Assembly (NCBI GenBank): GCA_951406725.2
Contig: OX597819.1
Coordinates: 106,020,001 to 106,084,000, forward strand
Direction: 5' to 3'
From: Octopus vulgaris
Taxonomy: Eukaryota
Length of the DNA: 64,000 nucleotides
The translations under genes were made by a program, and so were the position numbers. The notes beneath the pieces are model-generated. The model saw only the letters and a list, made by a program, of their open reading frames with translations, made no database searches and was not told the DNA's origin. Below are positions 6,570-50,694 of this stretch, piece after piece. The first letter of the stretch is position 1. Each line of letters starts with the position of its first letter.

Positions 6570-7225
6570 TTTCAACAATTGAGGGTAAAATTAATTAATT
6601 ATTAATCAATTTCACCAAGTGTTCAGTATGCAAAGGGACCATTTAAGGCGAATTCAAATTATTACATTATATAAAAGGGCTTAGTAAAATAAATTACTTT
6701 GCCGCATACTGAACTCATTAGAAATAGCAGCTAAAAAACTTTTTTAAAGCTATTTCTAATACTTAAAGAAAATCTCTCTCATATATAGTGTTTGCTTAAT
6801 TCAACTCACAAAAGTTTGGGGGTAAGGACATTAAAAAATCAAATGCTAAGGTTATTTGAGAACGTACGTTTCAAGATTAGTCAAGATTTGGGTTTGTTGG
6901 CACTGTTAGTTACGAGCGGATCTTCGAAAGGGTATGTTCTTACTTTCAGTGTTTCCAAATCCAAACCAAGGAGTTTCTGAGCTGATGATAGAAATGTTTT
7001 TTTGACTAATCTTGAAACGTACGTTCTCAAATAACCTTAGCATTTGATTTTTTAATGTCCTTACCCCCAAACTTTTGTGAGTTGAATTAAGCAAACACTA
7101 TATATGAGAGAGATTTTCTTTAAGTATTAGAAATAGCTTTAAAAAAGTTTTTTAGCTGCTATTTCTAATGAGTTCAGTATGCGGCAAAGTAATTTATTTT
7201 ACTAAGCCCTTTTATATAATGTAAT
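6570..7225. mobile_element. (TA)n-flanked inverted-repeat element (PLE-type inverted terminal structure, non-coding)
   Basis: Arms 6661-6884 and 7002-7225 (224 bp, identical by eye), 117-bp spacer, ~90-bp unpaired extension on the left, TA tracts both sides. Confidence 0.85.
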
Positions 7226-7744
7226 TATATATATATATATATATCAAACTTGTATGTGGATTACGTCTAGAGTAGGAATATTTGTTAGAAATATATGTGT
7301 CCATATATACATCGGTGTATGTGGATATATTCTATTTAATCCATATGTTTGTATATCATATTATGTCATATTTCACTTAATTGTATCGTATTATATTGTC
7401 TATATCTGTTTTATAAACACTTAGAATGCATATAAGAATATTCATAGTGCATATACAAATAGATATATGAATGTACCTTTTATATTTATTTTACTTTATT
7501 CTATTGTGCCTCTTGGAATAATAAGTGTCTATATAAGAAACTGATATTTGTGCATATATAAATGTATATATATACATATATAACTGTATATGTATGGGAA
7601 AATATAAATGTAGATATGGATATATACATGCATATGTATGGGAAACCATGAGAAACAGTCTCTTCTTTCACTTATCTTGGTTCCATTGTATCCAACGATG
7701 CGAAGTTGGATAAAGTAATTGTATATATGAAATAATCATTTAGA

Positions 7745-11228: not shown

Positions 11229-12478
11229 TATTAGGTCATCAAGTGTGAAATTTGTAGGAAAGAAGAAAAGTTTGCTAATGTTTTAGAAATGCAAGAAATA
11301 GTTTTATCCATCAAAGTATGCACCCATTTTGTAAATACACTTTTACCATTTCAGCGGTAGCTTGTCCAAACCAGATGTATAAATGCCTGGCAATCTAGAG
11401 TCAATAAAATATTGGAAGGCCTGTTTTACAACATCGTCGGAATTATTTTTTTCACTATCAAAAAGTTATCCAAATTCTGGAAGAAGTGGTACTCAGTGAG
11501 AGAATGATCAGGTGAGTATGGTGGATGATGGAGAACTTCCAACTTCAGCACCTGTAGCTTCGTCAATGTCATTTTTGCGATGCGTGGTCTGGCATTGTCT
11601 TGTAATAAAATAGGAGTGGATCTGTTGACTAATCGAGGCTGTTTTTTTTTGTAAGTTTGTGCATCATTTTGGTCCAGTTGGCCACAGTATACTTCGGCCG
11701 TGATTGATCACCCAGGTTTAATGAAATCTTAATGGATCACACCTGCGCCAGACTACCAAATACGCACCAGGTGCTTCTTTTGATGAATTTTGTTTTTTGG
11801 ACTGTGTTTTGATGATTCGTTTTTGTTCAACCATTGCGCTGAACGTATACGGTTGTATTGGATCCATTTCTCATCGCAAGAAATTAGCATCCTGTGGGCT
11901 TCCAAACGTTGCTGTTTCTGATTTTCATTGAGTTCATGTGGAATCCACTTATCCAACTTTTTCACTTTACCAATTTGAACTAGGTGTGTCAATATTGTTT
12001 GCTTGCTAACAACAGACAACAACGATAATTAACAGGTACTCTGGGATGAATCTGACTCGACTGTGGCTTTCAGTTCATCATTATCCACCTTGGTTTCTGG
12101 TCGACCGCGTTGATCATTAGTGAGATCAAAGATACCAGAACGAAATTTTGCAAACCAATTTGACACTATCTGGTGTGTAATAAAATCAGACTGAAATACT
12201 CCATTAATATTCCGAGCTGTCTGTGATACTGTATTTCCGAGAAAGAACTGATATTTCAAAACTCTATCAATTTCCAACTTATCCATCTCTAAACAAAAAT
12301 AGCAAAAGCGATTTATAAATACTTTCTAAAGCGCAAAATAAGTTACAGCAAAGAAATAGATGTGTCAGTATTCTAATAAAAAAATAAAGATAGTCAAAAT
12401 ATAATAATGGCGCAAAATGAGCAGCTGTCAAATTTTACCATATGCCTTTCTACAAATTTTATACTTGACGATTTAACA
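11229..12478 (-). mobile_element. Full-length decayed mariner (DD34D) transposon
   Basis: ~28-bp imperfect TIRs (11231-11258 / 12450-12478). ORF pieces contain the HTH region, RGRP, WIPHEL, CDEKW and HPPYSPD..EYHFF. Confidence 0.9.
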
Positions 12479-14186: not shown

Positions 14187-14767
14187 GCCATGATAGATCG
14201 TTAGCCACTACACACATTGTTTCCTCTCCTTGTTTCTCTCCTTGCTTTTTTTCTGTGTCCCTTTCTGTAGAAGAGCGTAGGCTCGAAACGTACAATACCT
14301 TTTCAATTCCTGAGCGTTATACTAATACATCTGTTTGTTTTGTACACCGCCTGTCTTCCTCTTTTTTTTTCGTGAACTCTCCTATATATATATATATACA
14401 TACATACATACATACATATATATATATATCCCAACACCATCACAGCACACACCACTACACCTTACACCACCATACCACACAATACATCACAACACATCAA
14501 CATGCACATGCAAACTCTCTTATACACACGCACGCACCACCACTTTGTTATCTCCCCTTCTCCCTAGCCCTTCTGTGTGACCCTTCTGTCCGGCCTGAGC
14601 CATCATAGATCGCTAGCCACTGCACATTCTTTATTTTCTCTCCTTGTTTCTTTTTGTATCCCTTTCTGTGGAAGAGCGTAGGCTCGAAACGTTAAAGACT
14701 TTTCACTTACCGAGCGTTATACTGGTACATCTGTTTGTTGTCTTTTGCTTTTGTGCGAAATCTCCAT
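14187..14767 (+). mobile_element. Partial tandem of a non-coding PLE-like unit with minimal hammerhead-like motifs
   Basis: Direct repeats 14187-14383 and 14599-14767, each ending in (TA)n. Motif CUUU-CUGUxGAA-GAGC(GUAG)GCUC-GAAA-CG-UH at 14261-14296 and 14662-14697. Confidence 0.7.
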
Positions 14768-15232
14768 ATATATATATATATATAAATATCGTCCGTTACT
14801 AGTGAGAGATTATCAATCCGGCTAAAATACTTTATAAGCTTTCTGTTGGTATACTAGGCTAACATTATTGTTTAGATTAGTAAAGAAATCGGCATATACT
14901 TATGGCAGTAGCCTAAGCTATAGTTAAGTTATAGTTCATCACCATCTTATGTTGTAAATTCGGTAGTTGAGTCCCAGTTATAGTGGGTTTTTACACAGTG
15001 TTATAAAAGGAAAGATATATACACAAGATATAGACAGGACAAGAAATGACTCTGATGAAAGTAGCTTTAAATTTTAGCTCATTCAGTTTTCTCAACCGTT
15101 TAATGGACAGTTTGAGTAATCCTATCAAAAACGAACTTATAATGATAACTGGAAACAACTGTATGTCAAATTTTCTGCAATAAAGAAAAAAATATGTAAT
15201 GACCATTATTTATACGTTGTCTCTTATTCTTC

Positions 15233-17454: not shown

Positions 17455-18630
<1,176 letters not shown>

Positions 18631-21509: not shown

Positions 21510-22545
21510 GAATCCTTACTTGCCATTGTTAGAATTAACAATATAATACACACTGAAAATGTGATACATCCACAAGCATTTAAGAAATAAGATGAAGAAG
21601 AAAGAGTAAACAACTGGAAAATGAAACCATGCATGGGCAATACTTCAGAGAAATCGAAGGAAAAGGGAAGATCAACACTTGGAGATGGCTAAGAGAAAGT
21701 AATCTGAAAGGATGCACTAAGGGAGCACCCAAGAATATGCTCTGAGAACTAATTACATCAAGTTCCAAATAGATAAAAGTAGCGTATCGCCCTTTGTATT
21801 ATGTGTGGGAGCAGAAACGAAACCATCTCGCAAATTGTGAGTGAGCGTAGCAACTTGGCTCAAAAACACTACAAAAGGCACGATAATGGGGATAAATTCG
21901 TCCACTGAGGCAGTGCTCAAGAATAAGCTCTAAGAATTAATTATACCAAGTTTCAAATAGATAAGAGTCGCGAATTTCCCCCTTTGTGGGAGCTAAATTC
22001 GGCCACTGGAGGCTATGTGAAAAGTACGGCCTGAACAGCTCACTGAAATGGTACGAATATGAACCTTAAGGAGTCAACAAGACCAAGGAACGTAAGATAC
22101 TGTGAGATTTTACAATCCAATGAGTCTCCCTAATCGTGGCACGGAGACAAGATATTCTTGTGGCAGATAAAGCAGAAAAAATCCAAGATCATAGATACTG
22201 CAATACTTGGAGAAGCAGACATAGATCTAAAAGAATTTTAAAAATTGGAAAAGTACAGACTACTAAGAGACGAAATTGCAAGAGTGTGAACTATGAGGAG
22301 AGTGTCTGTCATTCCAGTAGTTGTTGGGGGCAGAGATCGGAATTGATATGAGAGTAGAACAAGCCTCCAAAACTGCTCTGATGGGGACAGCTGGGACTTT
22401 GAGATGTTGAATGTCTCCCACGATAATTAACAGCCAAGTATGAAAACATGTAATATGCGGAAAGAGACTCTGTGAAACTTCAGACATCAGGCTACTATCT
22501 CAGAGAATCTATCAGAACAAACAACACCGAACGTTCTGAGAATTA
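21510..22545 (+). mobile_element. Decayed 5'-truncated R4/Dong-like LINE
   Basis: Frameshifted MHGQYFRE, WRWLRESNLK, ALRTNYIKFQID, CxMCGSRNETISQIVSE, YKRHD and VIPVVVG; flanked by (AAT)n/(ATG)n. Confidence 0.8.
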
Positions 22546-22791: not shown

Positions 22792-23333
22792 TAATAATAA
22801 TAAATTTTTTTGACCAATAGGACCCCACCTAAAAAAAAAAATCACTGATGGTGATGGTGATAATGGTGATGATGATAATAATGATAGTAATAGTGCTGAT
22901 AATCTATCTATCTATCTACACACACACAAACCCAAAGAGTTCAACCAACACAAAGAAAGTATTATTTGACAGGCAAGAACTCTGGTGTTGAAGACAGTCA
23001 GCCAGCCAACCACCAAGCCAGCCAACGAGACAGACAGACACTACTGTGATGGTGATAATGATAAAAAAAAAAATAACAATAATAAGATACTGCTGTGACT
23101 ACACATAAAACAATATCATTGATGATGATGGTGGTGATGGTGATGGTGATGATGATAATGATGATGGTAATGGTGGTGATAATGATGATAGTGATGGTAA
23201 TGGTGATGATAATAACAATAATAAGCCGACTACGGCTGCTATAATGGTACGATTATAATTGTAACGGCAATGATGGCCGTCTCCCCACGAGCCAATCAAA
23301 GCTAAAAAATGATAACATTATCGTAGCACCAAA

Positions 23334-24653
23334 ATGTTTTTGGAAACTAAAAGGAAAACTAAATCAGTATACCAAATCGCTTGTCCTATGGTTAATCTGG
23401 AAGCGCGTCCCCCAGGGATGAGCCAGCCTGGGATCGAAAAGTCATCAACTGGCACAAACTCTTCTCCGAATACGGACATGGATGGTCACTTGAACGGGAA
23501 ATCCCCCAACTCGAGCCCTCCAAGTTCACCACCACAACCACCACAGAAAGAAAAATGTAAGCGGAACAAATGGACCCGAGAAGAGTATAAAGAAGTAATA
23601 TACGCTTATTACTATGCATTAGGTAGGCCATCTCAAGAGAGACACACCGCAAACTCTTACAGTATATGGAGAACACGGAATCAAGACAGTAGGCCCTATT
23701 TGGACGAGAACAAATTAGCAAATGTGAGGAGGGATATCTTTAGAAATAACAGACTCACAGACAGTGAAATAAGCGCGATCAAGCACGCAACGGAAAATGA
23801 CATAAATATAAGACACAAAGGAAATGAAGAATCAGATGAACAGTATAGCCCGCCACGAGGCTTAATTGAAAGACTGCCATCTGACCAAAGTACGCAAATG
23901 CCTGAAGATACAAGAAATTCTATTGTACCTGTTAAAGATAGCCAGGAAAACGAAAAAACAACAGTAACTGAAGATCTCGCATTCGCTGAAGAACACAGAG
24001 AGTCTATGGCAGAAATGAGGCAGAAAATCCTGAATACGCTTGAAGTTGTAAGACATACAAGTATGAATGATAGAGAACCACTTCATAAACTCTCAAATAC
24101 AAACCAAAATAAAAAACAAATCCAAATTGGCAACTATGTAACAAATGAAATAATACGAGAATTAAAACCTGATTTGACTGAGTTAAATGAAATTATTTAC
24201 GCTTCTGCTAGGGCAATTGAAACCAGCTGTATGCCCCCGAAAAAACAAAGAAAACAAAACCTGGGAAGAAATCAAACCTGGAGAAGAAAAATTGAAAAAG
24301 AGATTGAATTTATGAGAGGGGAAATATCAATATTAAATGAACTAATATGTGGAAATGACGTAAGATCCAGAACAGGAAGAAAGATGAAGAGAAAATTTGG
24401 ATCCTCACCAAGAGAAGAACTGATATCAATAAAAGAAACGCTGAAACAAAAAGTCCAAGCAAAAGCCCAAAGAATACGAACATTTGAGAAGAGAAACAAG
24501 TTTTACAAGCAAAATAAGCTGTTCACATCAAATGCCAAAAAATTCTACAGAGAAATAGGGAAGGAGAAAGTAACCGTTAAAGACCCCCTCCCATGGAAGA
24601 AGTTCAAAACTTTTGGAAAAGGATTTGGAGTGACAAGAAGACGTACAACATAA
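23334..24653 (+). CDS. R4/Dong polyprotein, N-terminal part (frameshifted near 24590)
   Basis: 439-aa ORF with KWTREEY..VIYAYY and LANVRRDI motifs, and the R4-type pre-RT region AKAQRIR..KRNKFYKQNKLF..N.KKFYREI. Confidence 0.85.
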   Translation: MFLETKRKTKSVYQIACPMVNLEARPPGMSQPGIEKSSTGTNSSPNTDMDGHLNGKSPNSSPPSSPPQPPQKEKCKRNKWTREEYKEVIYAYYYALGRPSQERHTANSYSIWRTRNQDSRPYLDENKLANVRRDIFRNNRLTDSEISAIKHATENDINIRHKGNEESDEQYSPPRGLIERLPSDQSTQMPEDTRNSIVPVKDSQENEKTTVTEDLAFAEEHRESMAEMRQKILNTLEVVRHTSMNDREPLHKLSNTNQNKKQIQIGNYVTNEIIRELKPDLTELNEIIYASARAIETSCMPPKKQRKQNLGRNQTWRRKIEKEIEFMRGEISILNELICGNDVRSRTGRKMKRKFGSSPREELISIKETLKQKVQAKAQRIRTFEKRNKFYKQNKLFTSNAKKFYREIGKEKVTVKDPLPWKKFKTFGKGFGVTRRRTT

Positions 24654-27010
24654 ATGCTGACTGGATTATACAAACTGAAGGATCCTACCAAAATTTACAA
24701 CAACAAGCATGGGAAGACATCACAATAGCAGACCTAAGAAAGGCACTCACAAAGGCCCATAATTGGAAATCCCCCGGTAAAGATAGGGTGCCGAATTTCT
24801 GGCTCGCATCGCTCCCATGCGCACACGGTAAGCTAGTTCAGCTGCTCAATGGAATTATGAGAGACCCAAAGAAAACACCTGAATGGTTAGCAAGTGGCAT
24901 TACTTACCTACTCCCAAAGAATAACGAAACCAACCTTCCAAAAAACTATCGGCCTATAACCTGTCTATCCACCACGTATAAACTCCTAACATCTATCCTG
25001 GCGGAGAAAACATATGCATTCATAGAGAAGAACGATATTTTCCCCATTGAACAAAAAGGGTGCCGCCGAGGCTCTTACGGATGCAAAGATCAACTGCTAA
25101 TCAATCGTATGATCCTTGAGAACTGTCACAACAAGCGCAGAAATCTCAGCACCGCATGGATTGATTACAAAAAGGCCTTCGACAGTATACCGCATCCATG
25201 GATCTTGAGATTGCTGGACATCTTCAAAATTTCCCCTGTGATTTCAAACTTCCTGAAGCACAATATGTCGTTGTGGAATACGAATCTCCAATTATACCAC
25301 TCTAATGGAGTACTTGCCTCAGAAAATATAAACATCAACTGTGGAATTTTTCAAGGTGACTCACTTTCACCTTTAATAATCTGCATAGCCCTAATACCCC
25401 TTACAAGTGAATTAAACAGAACAGGGTATGGGTATAAAATTGCCAATAAAAAAATAAGCTATCTATTTTATATGGATGACTTAAAACTTTATGGTAAAGA
25501 CAATAATGAACTTGAAGGCCTATTGCGCACCGTGAAAGCATTCAGCGATGACATCGGGATGGAGTTTGGACTTGAGAAGTGTGCCAAGAAAGGGAAAGTG
25601 AAGACCACAAATTCAGTCGTGTTAGATGTTGACACAGTCATAAGAGAGCTTGAGCAAGAACAAACATACAAATATTTAGGGATAAATGAAGGCTCTGGTA
25701 TTCAGCATGCAAGCATGAAAGAGAAAATCAGGAAGGAATGTTATAGGAGAGTTCGTGCAGTCCTGAAATCTGAACTAAATGCACGTAACAAGGTGTTAGC
25801 TATAAATTCCTTAGCAGTTCCAGTTGTTACTTATAGCTACAATGTGTTGAACTGGAATATGAGTGAAGTAAAGAATATAGATAGAAAAATACGCAAGCTG
25901 CTGAGTTGTAATAGGATGCACCACCCAAAGGCAGACGTAGATCGCCTTTACCTTCCCAGAGCCCAAGGAGGTCGAGGCCTGATCCAATTTGAACTAGCTT
26001 ACAAAACAACCACAATTGGACTGGCCAAATATCTCGAAATATCGAATGACTGGATGCTAAAGCTCGTGGAAAATCACGAGAGACGAAAGAAGCTTCATTC
26101 TATCATAAAGGAAAGCAAAAAATTTGCTATTGATCTCGTGCAGGATACCCAAACTGAACAACCCGAGGGAAGTACGGCAACTATTGTTGCAAAGAAGGTG
26201 AAAATGATGGCAATGAAGAAAGCGCACGAGCAATTGGCTGATAGGTGGGAGGAGAAACCTCTGCACGGCAAATATGTGACCCGCAGCAAACAAGCTGATG
26301 TTGACCAGAAGCAAACCCATCAGTGGCTACGGAGCTCAGGGCTAAAAGCAGAGAGCGAAGGTTTCATCCTGGCTGCTCAAGATCAAAGCCTATTAACCCG
26401 GAACTACCAGGCCAATGTCATGAAAAATGGAGCAGACCCAAAATGCCGATTCTGCAACGACATGATTGAAACAGTGGACCACCTAATCTCTGGATGTAAA
26501 GTCTTAGCACCAGTGGAGTATAAATTAAGACATGACGGAGTTGGCCAATATCTCCACTGGCTAATAAGTCGGCATTACAATATCAAAACTGCCGACAAGT
26601 GGTATAATCACCACCCTGAGGCTGTAACTGAAGGAGAAAATGTAACGATTCTGTGGGACTTTCCAGTACATACAGACCGAACCATCAAGGCCAATAAACC
26701 AGATATTGTTGTGAAAGACCAAAACAATAAAGTTTGCTTATTGATCGACATGAGCATCCTCTGTGATCATAATATCTCAGCGAAAGAGTTTGACAAGCTC
26801 AGAAAATATAAAGACCTACTCATTGAAATTGAGAAAATGTGGCATCTCAAGGCGGTTACAATACCAGTGATCGTAGGAGCACTAGGAATGATCAAGAAGG
26901 GAACCGAAAATTATATGAGAATGATCCCTGGCTTACCATCCCTGCAAGAAGTGCAAAAGATTGTCTTAACTGGTACATCACACGTATTGAGAAGAGCATT
27001 GTCGATGTGA
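24593..27010 (+). CDS. R4/Dong polyprotein: reverse transcriptase, CCHC finger and restriction-like endonuclease
   Basis: KSPGKD, NYRPITCL, WIDYKKAFDS, GIFQGDSLSP, YMDD, YKYLG, GGRGL, CRFC..H..SGC, RHD, KPDIVV..LID, K..KY. Confidence 0.93.
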   Translation: MEEVQNFWKRIWSDKKTYNINADWIIQTEGSYQNLQQQAWEDITIADLRKALTKAHNWKSPGKDRVPNFWLASLPCAHGKLVQLLNGIMRDPKKTPEWLASGITYLLPKNNETNLPKNYRPITCLSTTYKLLTSILAEKTYAFIEKNDIFPIEQKGCRRGSYGCKDQLLINRMILENCHNKRRNLSTAWIDYKKAFDSIPHPWILRLLDIFKISPVISNFLKHNMSLWNTNLQLYHSNGVLASENININCGIFQGDSLSPLIICIALIPLTSELNRTGYGYKIANKKISYLFYMDDLKLYGKDNNELEGLLRTVKAFSDDIGMEFGLEKCAKKGKVKTTNSVVLDVDTVIRELEQEQTYKYLGINEGSGIQHASMKEKIRKECYRRVRAVLKSELNARNKVLAINSLAVPVVTYSYNVLNWNMSEVKNIDRKIRKLLSCNRMHHPKADVDRLYLPRAQGGRGLIQFELAYKTTTIGLAKYLEISNDWMLKLVENHERRKKLHSIIKESKKFAIDLVQDTQTEQPEGSTATIVAKKVKMMAMKKAHEQLADRWEEKPLHGKYVTRSKQADVDQKQTHQWLRSSGLKAESEGFILAAQDQSLLTRNYQANVMKNGADPKCRFCNDMIETVDHLISGCKVLAPVEYKLRHDGVGQYLHWLISRHYNIKTADKWYNHHPEAVTEGENVTILWDFPVHTDRTIKANKPDIVVKDQNNKVCLLIDMSILCDHNISAKEFDKLRKYKDLLIEIEKMWHLKAVTIPVIVGALGMIKKGTENYMRMIPGLPSLQEVQKIVLTGTSHVLRRALSM

Positions 27011-27205
27011 GAACTGTTGCTGCTCATGTATTTTAATTTAACTTAAAAAAAAAAAATGAATGAACTACTGAGTTTGGTTTAATGGCCTACCAATGTATAC
27101 TATGAGTTTCTTTGCCCTAGGAGTCGGGAAGACACTCGGCAAGTAATGGAAGCAAATTTGAAAGAAGAAAAAAAAGATAATAATAATAATAATAATAATA
27201 ATAAC

Positions 27206-27790
27206 ACCCCCCCCCAGTGCTTGAAAATGACCACATCTCACTCCTCTGGAACTTCACCATTCAAACTGACAGAAAGATAGATGCCAATAGGCCAGACATC
27301 ATATTGAAAGACTTCAAACAAAGAACATGCCTCCTCATTGATATGACTGTCCCAATCGATATAAACGTATCTGTCAAGACCTACCAAAAACTGAGCAAAT
27401 ATAAAGATCTTGAGATAGAAATCAGCAAAATGTGGAAGCTGAAGACTAAAACAATACCTGTTGTCATAGGTGCCCTGGGAATGATAGCAAAAAGGGGCTG
27501 ATAGCTACCTAACTCAGATACCAGGAAACCCCAAAATGGCAGAAATTCAAAAGACAGTGCTCATGGGAACTGCTCATATCCTACGCAAAATACTTTCTAT
27601 GTAATCTCAAGGCTTAAAACAAACATAATTTTCGTTTTTTCTTTTTTTTTTAGACATTCATTAGTACACCCCCCCCCAAATATATGGCACACTAGGCATA
27701 ACAACATGAACTTCCAACCTGTTGTCTCTTGAGGTCTCTGGGTGAGACTTGGAGCCAACTTGTACAAATATAAAGCAATAAGTCAATAAT
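27206..27790 (+). mobile_element. R4/Dong 3' fragment, second subfamily
   Basis: LLWNFTIQTDRKIDANRPDIILKD...KYKDLEIEISKMW..IPVVIGALG. The 3' UTR (GTCTCTTGAGGTCTCTGGGTGAGACTTGGAG) differs from the upstream element; TAA tail. Confidence 0.9.
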
Positions 27791-27851: not shown

Positions 27852-27861
27852 TAGCAACAAC

Positions 27862-28070
27862 TAATTCTTCGAGCTGGCAGAATTCTTACTGTGACGTCTA
27901 TTATTCTCGAGATTTTTACTCACTGTAAAAATTGTCGACTCTCCGACAATTATTGGTATTACTACCACCTTTTTCATCGACCACAACTGCTTCACATCCC
28001 AAGCTAACCTGTCATATCTATCTTTCTTCCTTATCGCATACCCTGTTGTCAGCTGGGCATTATCATTTTC
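27862..28070 (-). mobile_element. R4/Dong endonuclease-region fragment
   Basis: KKDRYDRLAWDVKQLWSMKKVVVIPIIVG. Confidence 0.75.
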
Positions 28071-28093
28071 GAATAATAACAATGATGATGATG

Positions 28094-28166
<73 letters not shown>

Positions 28167-28173
28167 TCATAAT

Positions 28174-28483
28174 AATATAGAAAGGATTGAGGTAACTCCT
28201 CCTGAAGATATAGTCAAAATTAAAAGAAGAGTGCCATTGTTATCTAGTGAACGATATTTCGACATATCGTGTGTGTTAATCATATACTGGTTAAAGAAAT
28301 ACGTTTGTCAATCTACTTCATTTCGGTTAATATATAAAGGATTGAGGTCACTCCTCCTGAGGATATAGAGTCAAAATTAAAAGAAGAGTGCTATTGAAAT
28401 CTAGTGAACGATATTTCGACATCTTGTGTGTCTTCAACTGGTTCAAAAAATAAATGTCAGTCTACATCATTTTGGTTAATATA

Positions 28484-28484
<1 letters not shown>
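28174..28484. repeat. Tandem dimer of a 155-bp non-coding unit within (AAT)n, with hammerhead-like motifs
   Basis: AAAGGATTGAGGT begins at 28181 and 28336. Minus-strand motif UGAAC-CAGUUGAA-GACA..UGUC-GAAA-UA-UC-GUUCA at 28405-28445. Confidence 0.8.
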
Positions 28485-28540
<56 letters not shown>

Positions 28541-28572
28541 TAATAATAATAATAATGATAATAATAATAATG

Positions 28573-28605
<33 letters not shown>

Positions 28606-28718
28606 GTAATAATAATAATAATAATAATAACAACAACAACAACTACAACAATAATAATAATAATAACAACAAAAGCAATAACGAATTCTTCGAACTGGTA
28701 GAATTGTTACCGCGATTT

Positions 28719-29449: not shown

Positions 29450-30140
29450 TGATTGACGACATTGTGTCCACCGGGGCTTTTTGTACTGTCTGTCAGGTCA
29501 CAAGGATCTCAGACCGACATTAATTTGCTCAATATTCGAGCTCTTCCAAATAATGCTACTTTTGCAACACACCTAGATTATAGGGTATTTCTAAAATTTC
29601 CAGATGTTTCTTCAGGTTAGGTGGTGTTGAATCCATTGCTCTGATGACCACAGGGGCAAATTTTATAGTTGACTCTCGCAGCTGCCACATCGTGGCGATC
29701 TCAGGTCTCCATATTTATCGATCTTTTCTCTTTCTTTTATGATAATATGTTGATCTCACGGCACTGCCATGTCGATTATTAGTTACTCTTGTTTGTCTCT
29801 CCTAAAGGTTACTGTGTCCTGTCTTCGGTGCTCTAATATATTGCCTGTGTAGAAGACAAAGTACCAGAGGATTTTTGCCTTGCCCTTTTCGCTCATTATA
29901 TTTTCTGGTGCATATTGGTACCAAGCACCCCTTACATATCCATACTTCCGGCATAGTAGCTAGTGAATAGTCTCCGCTACCTTGTCGTGTCTGCGCTTGT
30001 AGTCTTTCTGCATAAGACTCTCACAAGAACTAAAAATGTGAGTCACCCTTTCGATCCTCTTCCCACACATTCTGCAGCGGTTCGTTGCACCTTTGTGGTA
30101 TATAGCTCTTTTCATTGAGTTGGTATTTAATGCCTTAGTA
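29450..30140 (-). mobile_element. Decayed R4/Dong 3' fragment
   Basis: CRMCGKRIERVTHIFSSCESLMQKDYKRRHDKVAETIH (CCHC + RHD), with downstream RLE-like remnants. Confidence 0.85.
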
Positions 30141-30478: not shown

Positions 30479-30511
<33 letters not shown>

Positions 30512-30856
30512 TTAACGTTCTATTTGTACGAGTTGTCTCCAAGTCTTACCCAGAGACTTCAAGAGACAAGTTAGAAGTTCATGTTGGTGTTAGGCCTAAG
30601 GTGTCATATATTTGGTTTTGTACATTTATTGTTCTAGAGAATGTTTAAGAAAACAAAATTCTGAGTTTGTTTTAAAATCTGAGATTACATAGGCAGTATT
30701 TTACGTAGGTTATGGGCATTTCCCATGAGCACTATCTTTGGAATTTCTGTCATTGAGGGGTTTCCTGTTTCCTTTTGGTATCATTCCTGAAGCACCTATA
30801 ACAACAGGTATTGTTTAAGTCTTCAGGTTCTACACTTTGCCAATTTCTATTTCAAG

Positions 30857-32928: not shown

Positions 32929-33762
32929 TACAGGGTTCAGTGAATAAATTACCGTCTAAATAACGCAAAAATGAAAATAACACTGACGTCTCATTTTAAC
33001 AGATATATTTACCAAAATTACCTAAAAGTATTTTGAAATACTAAAGAATAACTTTATTCAATAAAATCGCCATTGGCTTCATCCACGGCCTCAAGACGAC
33101 TTCAGAATCTCTTGCAATTCTTCTGGACGGCCTCCTTGTTTAAGTTGGTGGATGCTGCCTTAATCACTGCATTTATTTCATCTTTGCTGTTACAAGGAAT
33201 TTTGTTGGTCTCTCGTGCAACTCGTTCCACACGTAATGTTAGGGATGATGTGGTCGTAGAAATTGTCAGACAGCCATGACTGGGTTCTTCTGCTTGTGTG
33301 GCGTGGCGCAGAATCCTGTTGCCACACATCGGGTCTTCCAGCAACCACCCTCCTGACCGAGGGCAGCACTACCTCGTACAAGCATTTGATGTATGTATCA
33401 GCGTTGAGTGTGAGGCCGTGTGAGAAGATGAATGGAGGCATAAAGTCGCTATCACTACTGGTCACTCCAAACACATTGATGTAGACTGGATGGTTGATTG
33501 TTATCACTCTCAGTACATGCGAACAGGTTGCACTGTCTTATATTGAAACTCAAACACTCTGAAATGTTCGTATTAAAATTTCTGGAGTGAACGCCACGCA
33601 GTACAGCATGTCGTTTCCAAATTTCTAGTAGAGTGAATTGCGTCACGGTGTTGTTTTTCTCACAGACGGTGCCCAACTGACTCTGCTATACTGTGTAGTC
33701 GACAAAATCAAAAACAATGTGCATGTGCGAAATTAACAATATAAAATGGCGACAATTTACCC
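32929..33762 (-). mobile_element. Internally deleted Tc1/mariner-superfamily element (maT/DD37D-like)
   Basis: TA-CAGGGT terminus; VFGV.SSD..MPPFIF..GL.LNAD.Y...L..VVLP and WQQDSAPRHTS. Confidence 0.75.
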
Positions 33763-35705: not shown

Positions 35706-37134
35706 TACAGAAAAGTAAGTATAAGTTTTTATCAAAGTTGTTTTATATTCTATAATTTTAACAGACAATAAATACAATATTAATTGTTATTGTTCGAGAT
35801 TTTGGTGTAATTTGAGAGGATAATACAAAAGTTATAGATGGTTTAGTAATTTACTGCAAAACCCATGGCGGCCAAAATGATCAGAATGGTTGCTTTTACT
35901 CCGTGTTTTAGTATATTTAACCGACGAACTCTAATGTTTTGAGTTTATTTACGTGACGGTTCGTTTACTAAACATTAGTAAGAATATCTGCAGTGTACTT
36001 TGTTAATATAATACCAGTTACTCCGTTACCAATTCGTCAGCAGATTATTAAGCTTCGAAAGAAGGATAATTTAAGTATTGGGTCTATTGCAAAGATTGTT
36101 AACAAGTCAAAAAGTGTTGTTCACGGTAGTCTTAAGGTCTGCAATGATTGTGGTTCGTGTGAAGCATGAAGGTATACAGGTAGGCCAAGAAAAACGACCA
36201 AGAGAGAAGATCGTGCTATGGTAAAGTTGGTTAAAAAGGACAGATTTAAAACTGCTGCTGCTGTTTCTCGGGAAATGAGCATTGTACTGAAGAAAACGTT
36301 ATCTCGAAAAACTGTCTCATCGTTTAGTTGAACATAACCTACAAGCAAGATCACCTACAGTGAAGTCACTGATCAGCTCCAAAAATAAAAAGGGTCGTCT
36401 TACCTTTGCAACCGAACATGTGTTGTGGTCTCAAGAAAAATGGCAAACAGTGCATTTCAGTGATGAATCTAAGTTTATGTTATTTGGCTCAGATGGGAAA
36501 AGGTACGTTCGTTGAAAAGTAGGTGAAAAATTGTCGCCTAAATGTCTTAAAACTAGTGTTAAATTCGGTGGAGGAAGTGTCATTGTTTGGGGGAAGATAT
36601 CTGGAGATGGTGTGGGGCTCTTTGGTGCGATTAAATGGAAAGGTAAATGCAGGAGTTTATAAACAACGTGTAAAAGATCATGTCTTGGCTGTGCTGAGAA
36701 ATTCAACTAAGCGACCACCCATATTCATGCAGGGCAATGCCCCATGTCACAAGGCTAAGGTGGTCATGAACTTCCTCAAGGCTGAAAAGGTTATTATTAT
36801 GGATTGGCCTGCTCAAAGCCCAGATCTCAATCCTATCGAAAATGTGTGGAATATTCTAGGAGAACGTTCGAAAGCCAGAAATCCTAAAACAACCGAGCAA
36901 TTATGGAATGCCCTTCAGGAAGAATGGAATAAGATCACCTAGCAAGAAATTGAAAATTTAATTTCCTCATGCAGTCGAAGATGTCAAAGTGTGATTGAAG
37001 CTGAAGGGCTTCACACTAAATATTAAATAATTCCAGTATTCTCTGTCATGTTTGATTATTTTGTTATTTTTTCAACCATTCTGATCCTTTTGGCCGCCAT
37101 GGGTTTTGCAGTAAATCCCTAAATCATCCATAAC
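35706..37134 (+). mobile_element. Decayed Tc1 (DD34E) transposon
   Basis: GRPRKTT, FSDESKF, GGGSVIVWG, FMQGNAPCH, WPAQSPDLNPIENVW, GLHTKY*. Inverted repeats at ~35823-35892 / 37073-37134. Confidence 0.9.
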
Positions 37135-39169: not shown

Positions 39170-40720
39170 AATATAGAAAAGAAATGTATAATAAATATGT
39201 CTGAAAAGGAAGACAGTAGACTGCTAATGATAAATAAATGGAACCAGTATTACATAGAATAAACAGATTCACTGGAGGAATAGATATTAAATTGAGTTTA
39301 GAAGAAAACAAACAAAAGGAGAAACGCGAGGTTATATGAAAGAGGAAGACTAATCAACATTAGTAATATCATATTAGATTCACACACAGAAGCAAAAGTA
39401 CAGCAAAAACAATTGTACAAATATTTAGAAATTAATGAACTAGACGCAGCGCAACATAGACTAAAGAAACGAAAAGGATAAAAAGAAATATTACAGAGGA
39501 ATTAGATTAATGCTTAAAAGAGAGTTAGATACAAGCATAAGGTAATGGACACCCCCGATAGTCTTGATTCTCCAGTAGTAAATTATATTTTCCCACTGGG
39601 TGCTAAGTGAATCAGGAAGACTAGACAGAAAAACAAGAAAATAACTGTTTTTAGAATAAACCTGATAAGAAACATTGTACTTACTACGAACATAGGGGAA
39701 CGTTTTGTAACTAGAAATTTAATGATATCTGCCGTGGAAACACATAATTATCTAGTGAAGATTAAATGGAAGCTAATACAAATAGCTACAAAACACGTAT
39801 AAATCAAACAAAGAATGTTGGAGTTCTTCAACAAATGTAAAGCAGTACTTGAGATAACAAACAGTTAGATTTAGAAGGGAAAAATAATGAAACTGCAAAA
39901 ACGAAAATGAAAATAAAAGAACCTTCTACAAACTAAACTGAAAACATGTTAACTATAGGATAACATGCTAAGGAGATGACTACAAAAATAATTAAAAGAC
40001 CAGAAATAGACTCTTCAAAATATAAGAAAGCTGGGTAAAGTGTTTTGGGTTTAAGACACAGCACTCGAGTTTCACATAGACAGATATTTTTATCAGGGCA
40101 TGATATTAACATAAAGCCCTCTGACTGGAAGCTACCAAACTCATATAAATATGCGGATTATGAAAAAAAATTCTGGAATATATGACTAAGAAAATATATT
40201 AATTACATTATTTATAGTTCCCAAGTCTTCAGCAATACATGCTCGTACTTACACAGAAGCATACCCACGAGCGTGTACACATAAAATTGTATGTATATCC
40301 GGGTAACGTACCGAAAGTATTACAAAAGAGTAATTTTTAACTGAAGTAAGATGTTAGAACTTCACATGGTAGAATAGCTCTTCTTCTACAGTAAATGCCC
40401 TTCCTATTCTTTTTGGGAGGTAAAGAATGAATTCCAAGCAAAAGCAACATACATCTTTGTCTTGATGAAGAAACATCTGTAGAAGGCTGCAAGCTGTTTA
40501 CGGAAATGAAACCATTGATAAGAAAAATGTTTACAAATGAAGGAAGAAGTCTGAAGAACGGAAAAGTAGCATTGAAAAATTCGCACAGTGTGGGATACCG
40601 TTATGTGCGACAATTTTACAAATCACCAGAGAATGCAAGAAATGATTCATGTGAACAGGTGAAACCCAATACTTGAGTTGACTGTACAAGTGCACTGTGG
40701 TGACAATGCATTAATGAAGA
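39170..40720 (+). mobile_element. Ancient decayed R4/Dong-like LINE
   Basis: ~39400-39560 reads QKQLYKYLEINE...QH...KKYYRGIRLMLKREL, colinear with EQTYKYLGINE..IQH..KECYRRVRAVLKSEL. Confidence 0.6.
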
Positions 40721-41595: not shown

Positions 41596-42104
41596 GTATA
41601 TTACATAAACATATACATATGTTCATGTGTTTTTGCATGTGTACCGGAGCTTCTGTTAGCGTAAGATTGTTTTACAATCGTGTTCATGTGGTCTTAATTC
41701 CAGTATAGAAGAAATTATGCGTAAATGTTTATGTTAATATGCTTGGCAATACAATACAATAGTATATCCACAATCGTCGGAATATTATGCTTACACTAAT
41801 GACTCAACTTTCCAATGGAAGTCACGTGGTTAAGTAAATATATATTTACCTCTCATATCTCCCGATTTTTTGATTTTGTGTAGTCCTCACGAAGTACCTT
41901 CATTTTTCGGATCTTCTAAATCATTAGCATGGACTATCTACATTACACGTCTTCGTAGTTGATCACTGTGTGAACTGTTAACCGAGGCCGCAAGATGAGA
42001 TTTCTGCGACAGCTGCACGATCCTCTGAATCCACATCTTCTCCTGCTTATTTATAATGATATATATATATATATATATTCATATATGAAAAGTTGTCGAA
42101 GAAC

Positions 42105-42460
42105 TTAATAATGATTATGTTATGGGATATTTGTATCCACATAAACAAAATGATTAAGGTAGAACGGCCGGATATTAATGTCAAAGACCATCAGGAAATG
42201 AAGTGTCTCCTGATCCCTCAACAGACCTTAACGTATTACAATGAAATCTACAAAGATAATCTAAATAAATATAAACATATAATAAAACGGTGGTGACCAA
42301 ATTGTGGCGGTTCAAAACAGAAACATTAATATAATATGAGATTGATTTGAAATGATTAAAAAACAAGCAGAGAAACTTATAACACAATACCCAGGCCTTG
42401 CATGCATAGCATTCACATACCTTTAAGTATTGAAAAACATATCGTAATTGCTTGATCAAA
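42105..42460 (+). mobile_element. R4/Dong RLE fragment
   Basis: IMLWDICIHINKMIKVERPDINVKDHQEMKCLLI. Confidence 0.7.
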
Positions 42461-43233: not shown

Positions 43234-43272
<39 letters not shown>

Positions 43273-43432
43273 TTTTTTTATGTATTAGACATTCACTAGT
43301 ACAACACCAAAAGAAAAGAAGAAAAAAAAAACCCCAAATATATGGCACAGAACTTCCAACCTGTTGTCTCTTGAGGTCTCTGGGTGAGACTTGGAGCCAA
43401 CTTGTACAGACATAAAGCAAAAGTCAAACATA
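43273..43432 (+). mobile_element. R4/Dong 3' UTR-only insertion in (AAT)n
   Basis: Close match to 27645-27787; AAT tracts both sides. Confidence 0.85.
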
Positions 43433-47596: not shown

Positions 47597-48043
47597 TAAA
47601 TGAATATATATATATATGATATTTATAGGTATATGTTTATACACTCTCACACACCAACACATGCATACACGCGCACACGCACACGTACGGGGGCACGCAC
47701 GTACACACACATACACGCCCGCGATGACTAATTACAGAAAAACCTAGTTGAAGAATCACAGAAGCTTAACGAAAACTATCCTACATATAATTTCTGCTAT
47801 AAGTTGGCGATTCAATCTTCCTGTTTACTAGTTCATAATCGCATTTATTTCTTATTACCTGTATATGAATTTCTGTGGGCAAAGTCAAGTTAAATGAATA
47901 AGTGAATATGGTCTAGTTAACGATGTCCATATACTATACAGTTCTATATTTAAGAGATGAGGAATTATTTACGTTATGAACAATATTTACATTTGACGGA
48001 TATTCGCCCTCATCTTGTTCGTTGTTAATACAACGTTTTACAC

Positions 48044-48110
48044 TCCACTACCTGGAATCGAACTCGGAATCTTGGGGTTAGTACCCCGCGCTCTTAACCG
48101 CTACGCCGTG
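48044..48110 (-). promoter_or_regulatory. tRNA-like Pol III head inside PLE pseudo-LTR
   Basis: GGCGTAGCGGTTAAGAGCGC-GGGGTACTAACCCC-AAGATTCC-GAGTTCGATTCC (A box, anticodon-like arm, B box); partial second copy at 50703-50737. Confidence 0.7.
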
Positions 48111-48136
48111 GGCAATTATGGAGTGAATTTTAGGGC

Positions 48137-50450
48137 TTATAAATCTAATATTCTCCTATCCTTCTTTAATACCGGTTCCCATATGCTGTTCATATCTGCA
48201 CTCGGTCTACTTAGGTGGTAGTTGTGTCCTAGCATATGTGCCGCTTCTTTTAGTTTTCGTATTTTCCAGTGGTGTCCTCTGCCTATTATCTTAACTTCAT
48301 CCCGCAAGGGGGGGGGGGTCTCCATTTTTCCATACACGCTCAGCTATGCCCGATTTATCAATATCTCCCCGTGTCACAGCTTTGCGATGTTCCTCTACCC
48401 TTATTTTGAGGGGGCGGCATGTTTCGCCATTGTATAACCTACCACAGCTGCATGGGATAGAGTACACGCAATTCTTGGTCATATTCTCTTCTATTGCTTC
48501 TTGTACACGAAGGAGATATTTGCAAAGTGTTGCATTACTTTTAAATACTGTCCTGATGTCATATGAGCCGCATATCTTTCGTATCTTTACGGAGAAGCCT
48601 TTCACATAGGGTAGTTAGACTGTGGACAGTTTATCGATTTCATCCTCTCTTTTCTTTATGATTGGAGTGGAGAGTGTGCTTTTAGTGTAGTTGTTGCTTA
48701 ATAGATTGTTACTGAGCTTGATCATTTGTTCGTGGTGTGTATTACGATCGCTACTCATATCCATTGCTCGATGTTTTAGGCACTGAGCAATCCCGCTCTT
48801 TATACTGTATGGATGGTGGGAGTTGAAGTTGAGGTATCATCCAGTGAAGGTCGGCTTGCGGTATACAGATGTTCTGATCCATACTTGGTGCGTGTTAGTA
48901 ATACGTCCAGGAAAGCTAGCTGATTGTCTTTCTTTTTTCCATTGTGAACTGTATGGATGGCTTTATTGAGTTCACATGATCTAACTGCACTTGGACATCT
49001 TCCTGGTGGGGCCAGATTGTAAAGGTGTCATCAACATATCGTAGGTATAGTGTTGGTTTTAGTGGTGTTGATCCTAAAGCCAAATTTTCAAAGTTTTCCA
49101 TGTATATATTGCCTATTACCGGTGATAGTGGCGAACCCATAGCTAAAGCCTCCTCTATCGATATATATAAGTGTCCATACTGAAGTAGGTAGCTTCTACA
49201 CAGAAGGTCAACATTTCTATCAAGTTTTTTATTGGAATATTAGTGCGTTCTTTTAGATGGGTGTCTGTCACTAGTTTTTCTTGAATCACCGATAATGCTT
49301 CACCAGTTGGGCCTTTAGTGAACAGACTTATCTCATCTAGATTCACCATCTTGTTGGATTGAATGAGGGTATCCTTTATCGATCCTTTGAAGTGGGTGGA
49401 ATTCTCCATGTACAATGTTGACTTTCCTGCTAATGGACTCATTATATCCATAAGGAAGCGGCTCAGTGGGTGACATGCTGAACCTCTGCAGCTCACTATA
49501 GCTCTTAATTGAATACCATCCTTATGAATCTTAGGAAGACCGTACGTGTGTAGTTGTTTACTGTAGCGTTGAGTCAGTTGTCTGTACTTCATTGCTGTAA
49601 AGTGATGCTTGTTCATGATCAAAATCTGTGACAACCTCCCCTCTATTTTCAAAGTAGTGTCTTTCTTTACTTTGCCGTAGCTATCATCACTTATAAGACT
49701 TGCCAGTTTTTCCGAGTAGTCAGACTTGTTCATCACCTCTGTAACATTCCCCATTGTCTGCTGCAAGTATTATGATGGAATTGTCATTCTGTAGTCTTTT
49801 GATAGCGAACGTTTCTTCCTTAGTGATGTTTGATTTGGGAAGTTTCGCTTTTTCTAGTACCCTTTAGTTCATCTCCCTGATCTTTCGGTATCTTTATGGC
49901 TATCTCTTCAATAGGGGATATTATGTCCAACTATGGAATGCGCCTGATGGTTGTCGCAAAGTTGAGGTCTTTGTTTAGTACTGTTTCTTCAGAGCTTTCT
50001 AGATGTCGGCCACTTACATTAATTATTGCTTCAGTCTCCATTCTCTGACCTTTGAGTTTCATAAACTTCTTACTCTGGCGTGTCTGCAACTTTTCAAATT
50101 CTTTCATGTACGACTTTTCTAGATCTTGTTGGATTCTCTTTCTATCATCATCTCTGGTTATTTTTCTAAGTAATGAAGATAACATCTCTTTGATTTCGTT
50201 ATTTAGTTGATGTTTGTTCCAACGGTTGTAATGAATCCTCTCGTGGACGAGGGCACGTCCTGCCCTTTCCGTTACTCTTCTAGCTTTATATGAATCCACT
50301 GGTATCATTATATTGAAGCCAGGTGGTATTAGCTTTGAGTCTTTACATCTCCACAGGAAAATTAGATGGTTTGAAAGACGAGCTAGTTTTTGATGGAGTT
50401 TCTCTATATGTCTCCATTGAGGTTTTATGTCGGCTCCGTACCGATTAGAT
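48137..50450 (-). pseudogene. Penelope-type RT-GIY-YIG polyprotein (stops and frameshifts)
   Basis: NHLIFLWRCK...LIPPG, LNKDLNFA, YGLPKIHK, SLFT, MGSPLSP, RYVDD, NCVYSIPCSCGRLYNGETCRPLKIRVEEH, RKLKEA. Confidence 0.9.
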
Positions 50451-50542
50451 AATACAGTTCGATGTTTAAGAAACGAGGAATTATGTACATTATTTACTTT
50501 ATTTACATATGAAGGATATCTGTCCTCATCCTGTTTGTTGTT

Positions 50543-50588
50543 AATACAACCTTTCGGCTGATATACCCTCCAGCCTTCATCAGGTGTT
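50543..50588 (-). ncRNA. Minimal type I hammerhead motif in PLE pseudo-LTR (stem III mutated)
   Basis: AACAC-CUGAUGA-A-GGCUG(GAGGGUAUAU)CAGCC-GAAA-GG-UU-GUAUU; the other repeat retains AAACGUUGUAUU. Confidence 0.75.
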
Positions 50589-50636
50589 TTGGGGCAAATT
50601 TGGAACCTGGGTTCTCATTCCTAAGGTATTTTTCGA

Positions 50637-50694
<58 letters not shown>

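Follow-up and report, generated by a model that had tools for sequence, protein, structure and literature searches.

The short tandem repeat at 28174–28486 of the 64-kb window (the whole stretch of DNA analysed here) is an old insertion of two units. They belong to a non-coding, high-copy family in which each unit carries, on its minus strand, one minimal hammerhead-like motif. The family is likely non-autonomous and derived from the terminal repeat of a Penelope-like element (PLE), copied by a PLE protein into sites in AT-rich microsatellites. Tandem repeats with hammerheads that stem from PLE ends have been described before, and there is nothing unusual in such a layout. Interest lies in the core of the motif: U at position 6 is the norm in this high-copy family and recurs in a second repeat whose stems are unrelated.

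Layout, age and copy number of the repeat

The window consists of AT-rich eukaryotic DNA crowded with microsatellites and transposon debris (Table 1). Its repeat types, together with the abundance of Dong-R4 and Penelope-like elements in Octopus vulgaris (PMC13282606), suggest an octopus-like cephalopod as the probable host, a point on which none of the conclusions relies. Within it, two units stand head to tail with (AAT)n arrays on both sides; their start-to-start period is 155, unit 2 measures ~149 nt from end to end, and the nine nucleotides at 28478–28486 are identical to the start of the unit at 28174–28182. Across 167 columns the units share 83.2% identity, and the two diverged 155-nt tandem units inside (AAT)n that the initial annotation had described are thus real; a third copy of the ~155-nt unit is absent from the 64-kb window. 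Insertions and substitutions in unit 1 disrupt the 5' core and the helix II strand of the hammerhead-like motif, the depth of matching contigs drops there to a few hundred at 28274–28284, and the family's letters deviate from unit 1 at 28266, 28293, 28296, 28302, 28303 and 28324. According to variant tables read by hand, unit 1 and unit 2 each depart from the family majority at ~10 places, which explains the 17% difference between them and indicates an old dimer. On the two sides of the dimer, at ~27860–27890 and ~28680–28710, an (AAT)n tail is immediately followed by a short stretch; the two stretches resemble each other and are probably the heads of one SINE-like repeat.

Table 1. Positions of the repeat units, motifs and neighbouring elements in the 64-kb window
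Feature	Positions	Strand	Remarks
(AAT)n microsatellite, left flank	28072–28177	+	
(AAT)n microsatellite, right flank	28485–28666	+	
Unit 1, decayed	28174–28328	-	3' half of hammerhead-like motif kept at 28265–28248
Unit 2 with 9-nt repeat of unit start	28329–28486	-	
Minimal type I hammerhead-like motif	28405–28445	-	helix I 28445–28441/28409–28405
Core of the minus motif	28440–28433	-	8-nt CAGUUGAA; position 4 = A, position 6 = U
Helix II of the minus motif	28432–28429/28421–28418	-	4 bp, G-C first
GAAA of the minus motif	28417–28414	-	followed by UAUC; palindromic minimal helix III; predicted cut after 28410
Long-looped hairpin 3' of the minus motif	28348–28390	-	10 pairs including G-U wobbles
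Counterpart of the hairpin in unit 1	~28191–28235	-	
Hammerhead look-alike, unit 2	28350–28389	+	core 28357–28363
Hammerhead look-alike, unit 1	28195–28232	+	core 28202–28208
Short repeat, two copies	14187–14385 and 14599–14770	+	80% alike, each ends at (TA)n
Near-complete reverse transcriptase LINE	23316–27180	+	two long frames, 445 and 809 aa; PF00078; (AAT)n tail
Stacked 3' fragments of related LINE families	21992–22331, 27205–27790, 29702–30136, 30505–30856		
Further 3' fragments of related LINE families	39329–39592, 42087–42284, 43270–43430		
Decayed Penelope-like element	~47900–50640	-	N-terminal frame, reverse transcriptase and GIY-YIG-like pieces

Copies of the family were judged from contigs of public sequencing runs, 11 studies containing part of the dimer stretch. 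Four runs were compared at 80% likeness, namely X1, X5 and X9, which stand for organisms A, B and C, and X15, taken as RNA by guess and used neither for nor against expression. Contigs matching the dimer stretch number 1986 in X1, 897 in X5, 726 in X9 and 14 in X15, and so many distinct contigs suggest at least hundreds of copies, summed depth being no copy number. The unit junction is spanned by contigs in organisms A, B and C, contig joints in the X1, X5 and X9 data step back by ~150 bases, and most loose ends of other copies, at 28165/28173, consist of AAT or TAT runs; taken together, these observations make the tandem layout and the microsatellite flanks traits of the family. Whether the unit was single-locus had been a question at the outset, and it proves to be a multi-copy family in three organisms, often in tandem. 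In organism B (X5), depth is concentrated over two parts of the unit, the hammerhead-like motif and the adjoining hairpin's 5' arm (28219–28262 and 28382–28460), and the unit junction is little covered; its copies read as a shorter or more diverged, mostly non-tandem subfamily.

The minus-strand motif and its core

The minus-strand motif is present in unit 2 exactly as the initial annotation had given it, and is complete in that unit only, the 5' core having been lost from unit 1. It has the helix I, the helix II closed by G10.1-C11.1, the GAAA, the palindromic minimal helix III and the UH of PLE-type motifs, and retains C3-G8, G5, A9, G12, A13 and A14. The core departs from CUGANGA(H) (or UUGANAAA) at two positions: position 6 is U, and position 4 is mostly A, with U there making up 4/27/15% of depth (X1/X5/X9). 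Since the core fails this comparison, we call neither the motif a hammerhead ribozyme nor the locus a retrozyme; judged from its letters, the minus motif of this high-copy repeat would be hammerhead-like at best, with an altered core.

Helices I and II form the minimum-energy fold of a 50-nt stretch of unit 2 (RNAfold, -6.8 kcal/mol), which is no stabler than the folds of shuffled sequences (z -0.45). A general minimal-hammerhead descriptor matches 0 of 20,000 dinucleotide shuffles of unit 2 on either strand and, when helix I is relaxed, finds only 28440, 14666 and 50583 in the 64-kb window. Rfam returned no ribozyme match for this motif or for its plus-strand counterpart, the search of the locus yielding 3 weak non-ribozyme matches, and no ribozyme stands among the 150 of 216 matches listed for the whole window.

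Variant figures come from the 40 of 74 variant rows listed, and all shares are depth-weighted over short contigs. Among these rows there is no variant restoring A6 in the minus motif. They hold six variants within the 41-nt motif, where the variant sites include 28410, 28425, 28436 and 28439, and four of the six exceed 10% in any DNA run. Besides position 4, the frequent variants affect H17 (C or U, 37/3/18% in X1/X5/X9), loop II (55/26/27%) and N7 (33/13/6%), while the rare ones lie in helix I (0.6/6.8/2.6%) and at G8 (at most 0.4%). The chance that four variants above 10% would all fall at tolerant sites is p = 0.002, or 0.03 with position 4 counted as constrained; the placement of the variants is moderate evidence, because two of the four sites are CpG and 40 of 74 rows are listed.

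The 8-nt CNGUNGAA core type had also been claimed for a site near 14.2 kb, and it is indeed present at both 14265 and 14666, once in each copy of a short repeat (Table 1). This repeat has the same hammerhead-like layout with a U6 core, and its helices and helix III palindrome differ from those of the unit; in the 14265 copy, helix I is weakened. The two repeats have no significant sequence similarity, as 98 of 500 shuffles score equally well, so U6 is a trait of two unrelated repeats rather than the decay of one copy. To our knowledge, A6 is near-invariant in hammerheads. A U6 hammerhead core was not found in the literature searched, and Lunse et al. (RNA Biol 14:1499) may describe such variants.

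Given the altered positions 4 and 6, we predict that self-cleavage is slow, depends on help from a protein or does not occur at all, and we consider it somewhat doubtful that the minus motif would show any measurable cleavage. A more far-reaching reading is that the PLE-derived repeats here carry a distinct U6 hammerhead class, present in at least two unrelated families with different stems, still cleaving as a dimer or with PLE protein, converting tandem transcripts to ~155-nt circles, very abundant, and missed by every CUGANGA-based search; this we regard as unlikely. If the U6 motif does cleave, an entire class has escaped the standard descriptors and the hammerhead core is more tolerant than assumed. 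If it does not, PLE-type elements would keep the hammerhead fold without its chemistry, and such a non-cleaving fold would bear on the role that hammerhead motifs play for PLEs.

The plus strand and alternative readings

A second hammerhead, on the plus strand of both units, had been proposed with a canonical CUGANGA, a matching stem and AAAA in place of GAAA. The letters are as quoted, starting at 28202 and 28357, and CUGA(A/G)GA does stand inside a stem. That stem contains a C-A mismatch, the omitted letters before GUC in the original quotation conceal a helix II that lacks its 5' strand, and no UH triplet accompanies the AAAA. The family's plus core reads CUGAAGA, with 28361 G>A in about 99%, and commonly varies by a change of U4 to A (7/56/9% at 28203 and 14/43/16% at 28358 in X1/X5/X9). 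The suggestion that other copies might restore GAAA and UH does not hold. No A>G change reaches 5% anywhere in the dimer stretch in X1, X5 or X15, X9 has two A>G places, one of them 28278, and depth is high over both AAAA tracts; GAAA is therefore not restored in the family, AAAA is its norm, and the family majority lacks helix II, GAAA and UH alike. Relative to the minus motif, the depth of the plus core is 0.84 in organism A, 1.01 in C and 0.29 in B, where A-rich loose ends also occur at 28222 and 28382, which suggests that many copies in organism B stop before the plus core or diverge in it. U/A variation at core position 4 is found in the plus look-alike (28203/28358) and in the minus motif (28439) alike; it is strongest in organism B, and the parallel may be coincidence.

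The stem of the look-alike is the mirror image of the long-looped hairpin that lies 3' of the minus motif. The hairpin is stabler on the minus strand (-10.7 versus -5.7 kcal/mol in unit 2, and -8.9 versus -6.0 kcal/mol in unit 1) because its G-U pairs correspond to A-C mismatches in the plus-strand version. The look-alike is most likely this mirror image together with a chance CUGAAGA and, to go by its sequence, is not a working ribozyme in the family. It might instead be a true vestige, left by an older PLE end of opposite orientation that was fused into the unit and whose hammerhead was already dead in the master copy before amplification. This is suggested by the fit of CUGAAGAU to CUGANGAH directly inside the stem, by the finding that a loose descriptor (CUGANGA, GAAA with one mismatch, 6 of 7 stem pairs) matches just 242 of 20,000 shuffles, and by opposite-strand minimal hammerheads that occur 100–700 bp apart around PLEs of Schistosoma (PMC4209133). 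However, a vestige needs three lesions (in helix II, at G12 and at U16.1) fixed throughout the family, the loose pattern was drawn up post hoc and also matches 3 other sites in the window (15052 on the plus strand, 40232 and 36040 on the minus strand), the minus strand gives the better-paired stem, and the ends of the PLE in the window show no similarity. We therefore consider a vestige distinctly improbable.

The two motifs together had led the initial annotation to a viroid-like reading, in which the locus is what remains of a tiny circular RNA replicon, with a ribozyme in each polarity, that was reverse-transcribed and then amplified. Viroid-like circular RNAs have ribozymes in both polarities and a rod-like fold, and a plus-strand CUGANGA and a minus-strand hammerhead-like motif do share one 155-nt tandem unit here. 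The plus motif, however, is broken in the family majority and not only at this locus, varies at U4, and is under-represented in organism B. Nor do the circular folds of either polarity differ from those of shuffles: all 6 of 6 give z between -1.14 and +0.8, that is, about 0, with 45–65% of bases paired and no compact rod-like or branched form, the copies folded being decayed ones. Matches to an 18-base pattern, 45 in metagenomes, 5 in viral sequences and 0 in prokaryote genomes, include no extended relative. BLAST likeness stops at ~36 bases in all of the metagenome and viral matches with one exception, a gapped match over 51 columns (76%) that three near-identical loci share. The 21 pattern-matching loci with 170 bases upstream have no upstream core or helix I partner. 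The ambisense relic is thus not supported, and we hold it to be extremely unlikely. As a separate observation, the 18-base pattern is common to three unrelated repeat or conserved families in metagenome contigs (L004, L009, L010, L013, L020, L026, L036 and L038; L016, L017, L029, L033, L037 and L041; L002, L021, L035 and L039), with no upstream hammerhead core or helix I partner.

A different explanation would make the minus motif incidental, the unit being either a passenger of (TAA)n-tailed Dong/R4-like LINEs or a plain satellite or plus-strand coding remnant. Dong/R4-like LINEs with (AAT)n tails crowd 22–31 kb, and the unit shares its (AAT)n polarity with those at 23.3–27.8 kb; since (AAT)n is thus also the tail of the LINEs next door, the flank does not name the partner element. 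The near-complete LINE (Table 1) has the look of a C-terminal restriction-like endonuclease, and we take it to be of Dong/R4 type. As a passenger the unit was rejected, however, because 16 comparisons with four Dong-like ends in the window, 3' and 5', revealed no similarity. For a coding remnant, one plus frame is broken in unit 2 only at stops private to this copy, and several family variants fall on third codon positions of that frame. Against this, 9.5% of shuffles contain an open run of 50 codons, so that the frame length is expected by chance, and two protein searches found no homologue. The minus motif is also too exact for chance and recurs with other stems, and on balance we judge an incidental motif very unlikely. 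A tRNA-derived SINE was likewise rejected, there being no tRNA in the window. Elsewhere in the window lie two MITE-like inverted repeats, one at 6658–7228 that looks very young (227-nt arms, 100% complementary, around 117 nt) and one at 17548–18116 (180-nt arms, 98% complementary, around 209 nt), as well as frames at 11426–12325 (-), 33190–33537 (-) and 36523–36942 (+) that, by eye, we take to be Tc1/mariner transposase-like fragments.

Probable derivation from Penelope-like elements and comparison with known systems

Descent from a PLE terminal repeat, which we prefer, agrees with the insertion in AT-rich microsatellites and the partial-tandem layout of PLE pseudo-LTRs, traits that are not specific to PLEs. 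The endonuclease of a lizard PLE prefers 5'-ATT-3' (PMC11167929), and PLEs are biased to microsatellites (PMC8557442). The window itself contains a decayed PLE, which serves as an internal control: its reverse transcriptase motif lies at the PF00078 cut-off, its top atlas matches are to GIY-YIG at 0.96, with the family on 18–20% of cluster members, and it carries a canonical minimal hammerhead, CUGAUGAA, at 50583, adjoining (AAT)n. The reading frame of this PLE runs through the hammerhead core at 50583, and part of its terminal repeat recurs at ~48040–47935. No autonomous partner element emerged from the comparisons made. A short-motif search showed no similarity between the unit and the octopus Naiad or the other sequences in the PLE consensus file of PMC8557442. 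Among 28 local alignments of the unit with the ends of neighbouring elements, the best, to the 3' end of the window PLE and out of register with its hammerhead, has p 0.01 and fails correction.

Under a PLE derivation, the minus strand would be the RNA strand, and the two motifs of a tandem transcript could pair through their palindromic helix III into the dimer form. The PLE reverse transcriptase-endonuclease would then insert copies of more than one unit at ATT-rich sites, giving dimers that subsequently decay, and the hammerhead fold may by now be chiefly a signal that the PLE protein recognises. PLE minimal hammerheads are presumed to function in dimeric form and show poor cleavage in vitro (PMC4209133), many PLE-linked variants cleave as dimers according to Lunse et al. 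(via the review PMC6765202), and the hammerhead of a lizard PLE cleaves only with the PLE protein, cleavage being dispensable for insertion in vitro (PMC11167929).

Compared with viroid-like ambisense RNAs, the repeat has the small size and a hammerhead-like motif in common; unlike them, its second-polarity ribozyme is not intact, it has no rod-like fold, and it is a high-copy DNA repeat. Of the retrozyme- or viroid-like layout proposed at first, the viroid half falls away, and what stands is a multi-copy, often tandem repeat with a minimal-hammerhead-like motif.

The retrozyme half of that proposal calls for a closer comparison. Non-LTR retrozymes are tandem type I hammerhead repeats of 150–450 bp, some of which are expressed as self-paired circles (Cervera and de la Pena 2020, PMC7229834). 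Like them, the unit is non-coding, multi-copy and head-to-tail, has a low GC content (under 50%) and a length within 150–450 bp, and the family carries one type I hammerhead-like motif per unit; monomers, dimers and multimers and a proposed PLE origin are shared features as well. The unit differs in its non-canonical core and in having no compact self-paired fold: the strong self-pairing reported for retrozyme circles is not seen in its circular folds (z -1.14 to +0.8, decayed copies). In animals, tandem hammerhead repeats match PLE terminal repeats, and 1 of 9 tested tandem dimers cleaved (Li, Clavereau and Pollet, bioRxiv 10.64898/2026.07.22.740005). No two consecutive units at this locus both have a complete type I hammerhead, unit 1 being disrupted and both cores being non-canonical if complete; with one complete motif in two units, the locus is not an 'active' retrozyme in the sense of Li et al.

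The nearest parallel to the altered core itself is the natural A6C hammerhead of phage Bcep176, which cleaves at <0.1 per min (Perreault et al. 2011, PMC3088659). As in the minus motif, position 6 is changed there in an otherwise complete motif, with the difference that the phage example is a single motif and U6 here is found in two unrelated repeats, one of them a high-copy animal repeat. In the minus motif, position 4 is mostly changed as well.

The minimal hammerheads of PLE pseudo-LTRs provide the most detailed comparison. Their consensus reads U-rich, helix I, CUGANGAH, G..C, GAAA-N-N-U-H (Cervera and de la Pena 2014, PMC4209133), and the UAUC end of the minus motif occurs among the PLE-associated motifs in a supplementary table of that paper. 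The minus motif shares with them the U-rich leader, a 5-bp helix I, an 8-nt core with an extra base after A9, G10.1-C11.1, GAAA, a palindromic N-N for helix III, and UH. It is unlike the motifs in a portion of supplement file 2 of PMC4209133, where 44 of 44 have U4 and A6 (both required by that search), in its U6 and mostly A4, and its helix II is short (4 bp). The PLE motifs exist as thousands of solo or truncated copies per genome, and the repeat described here is likewise a high-copy one.
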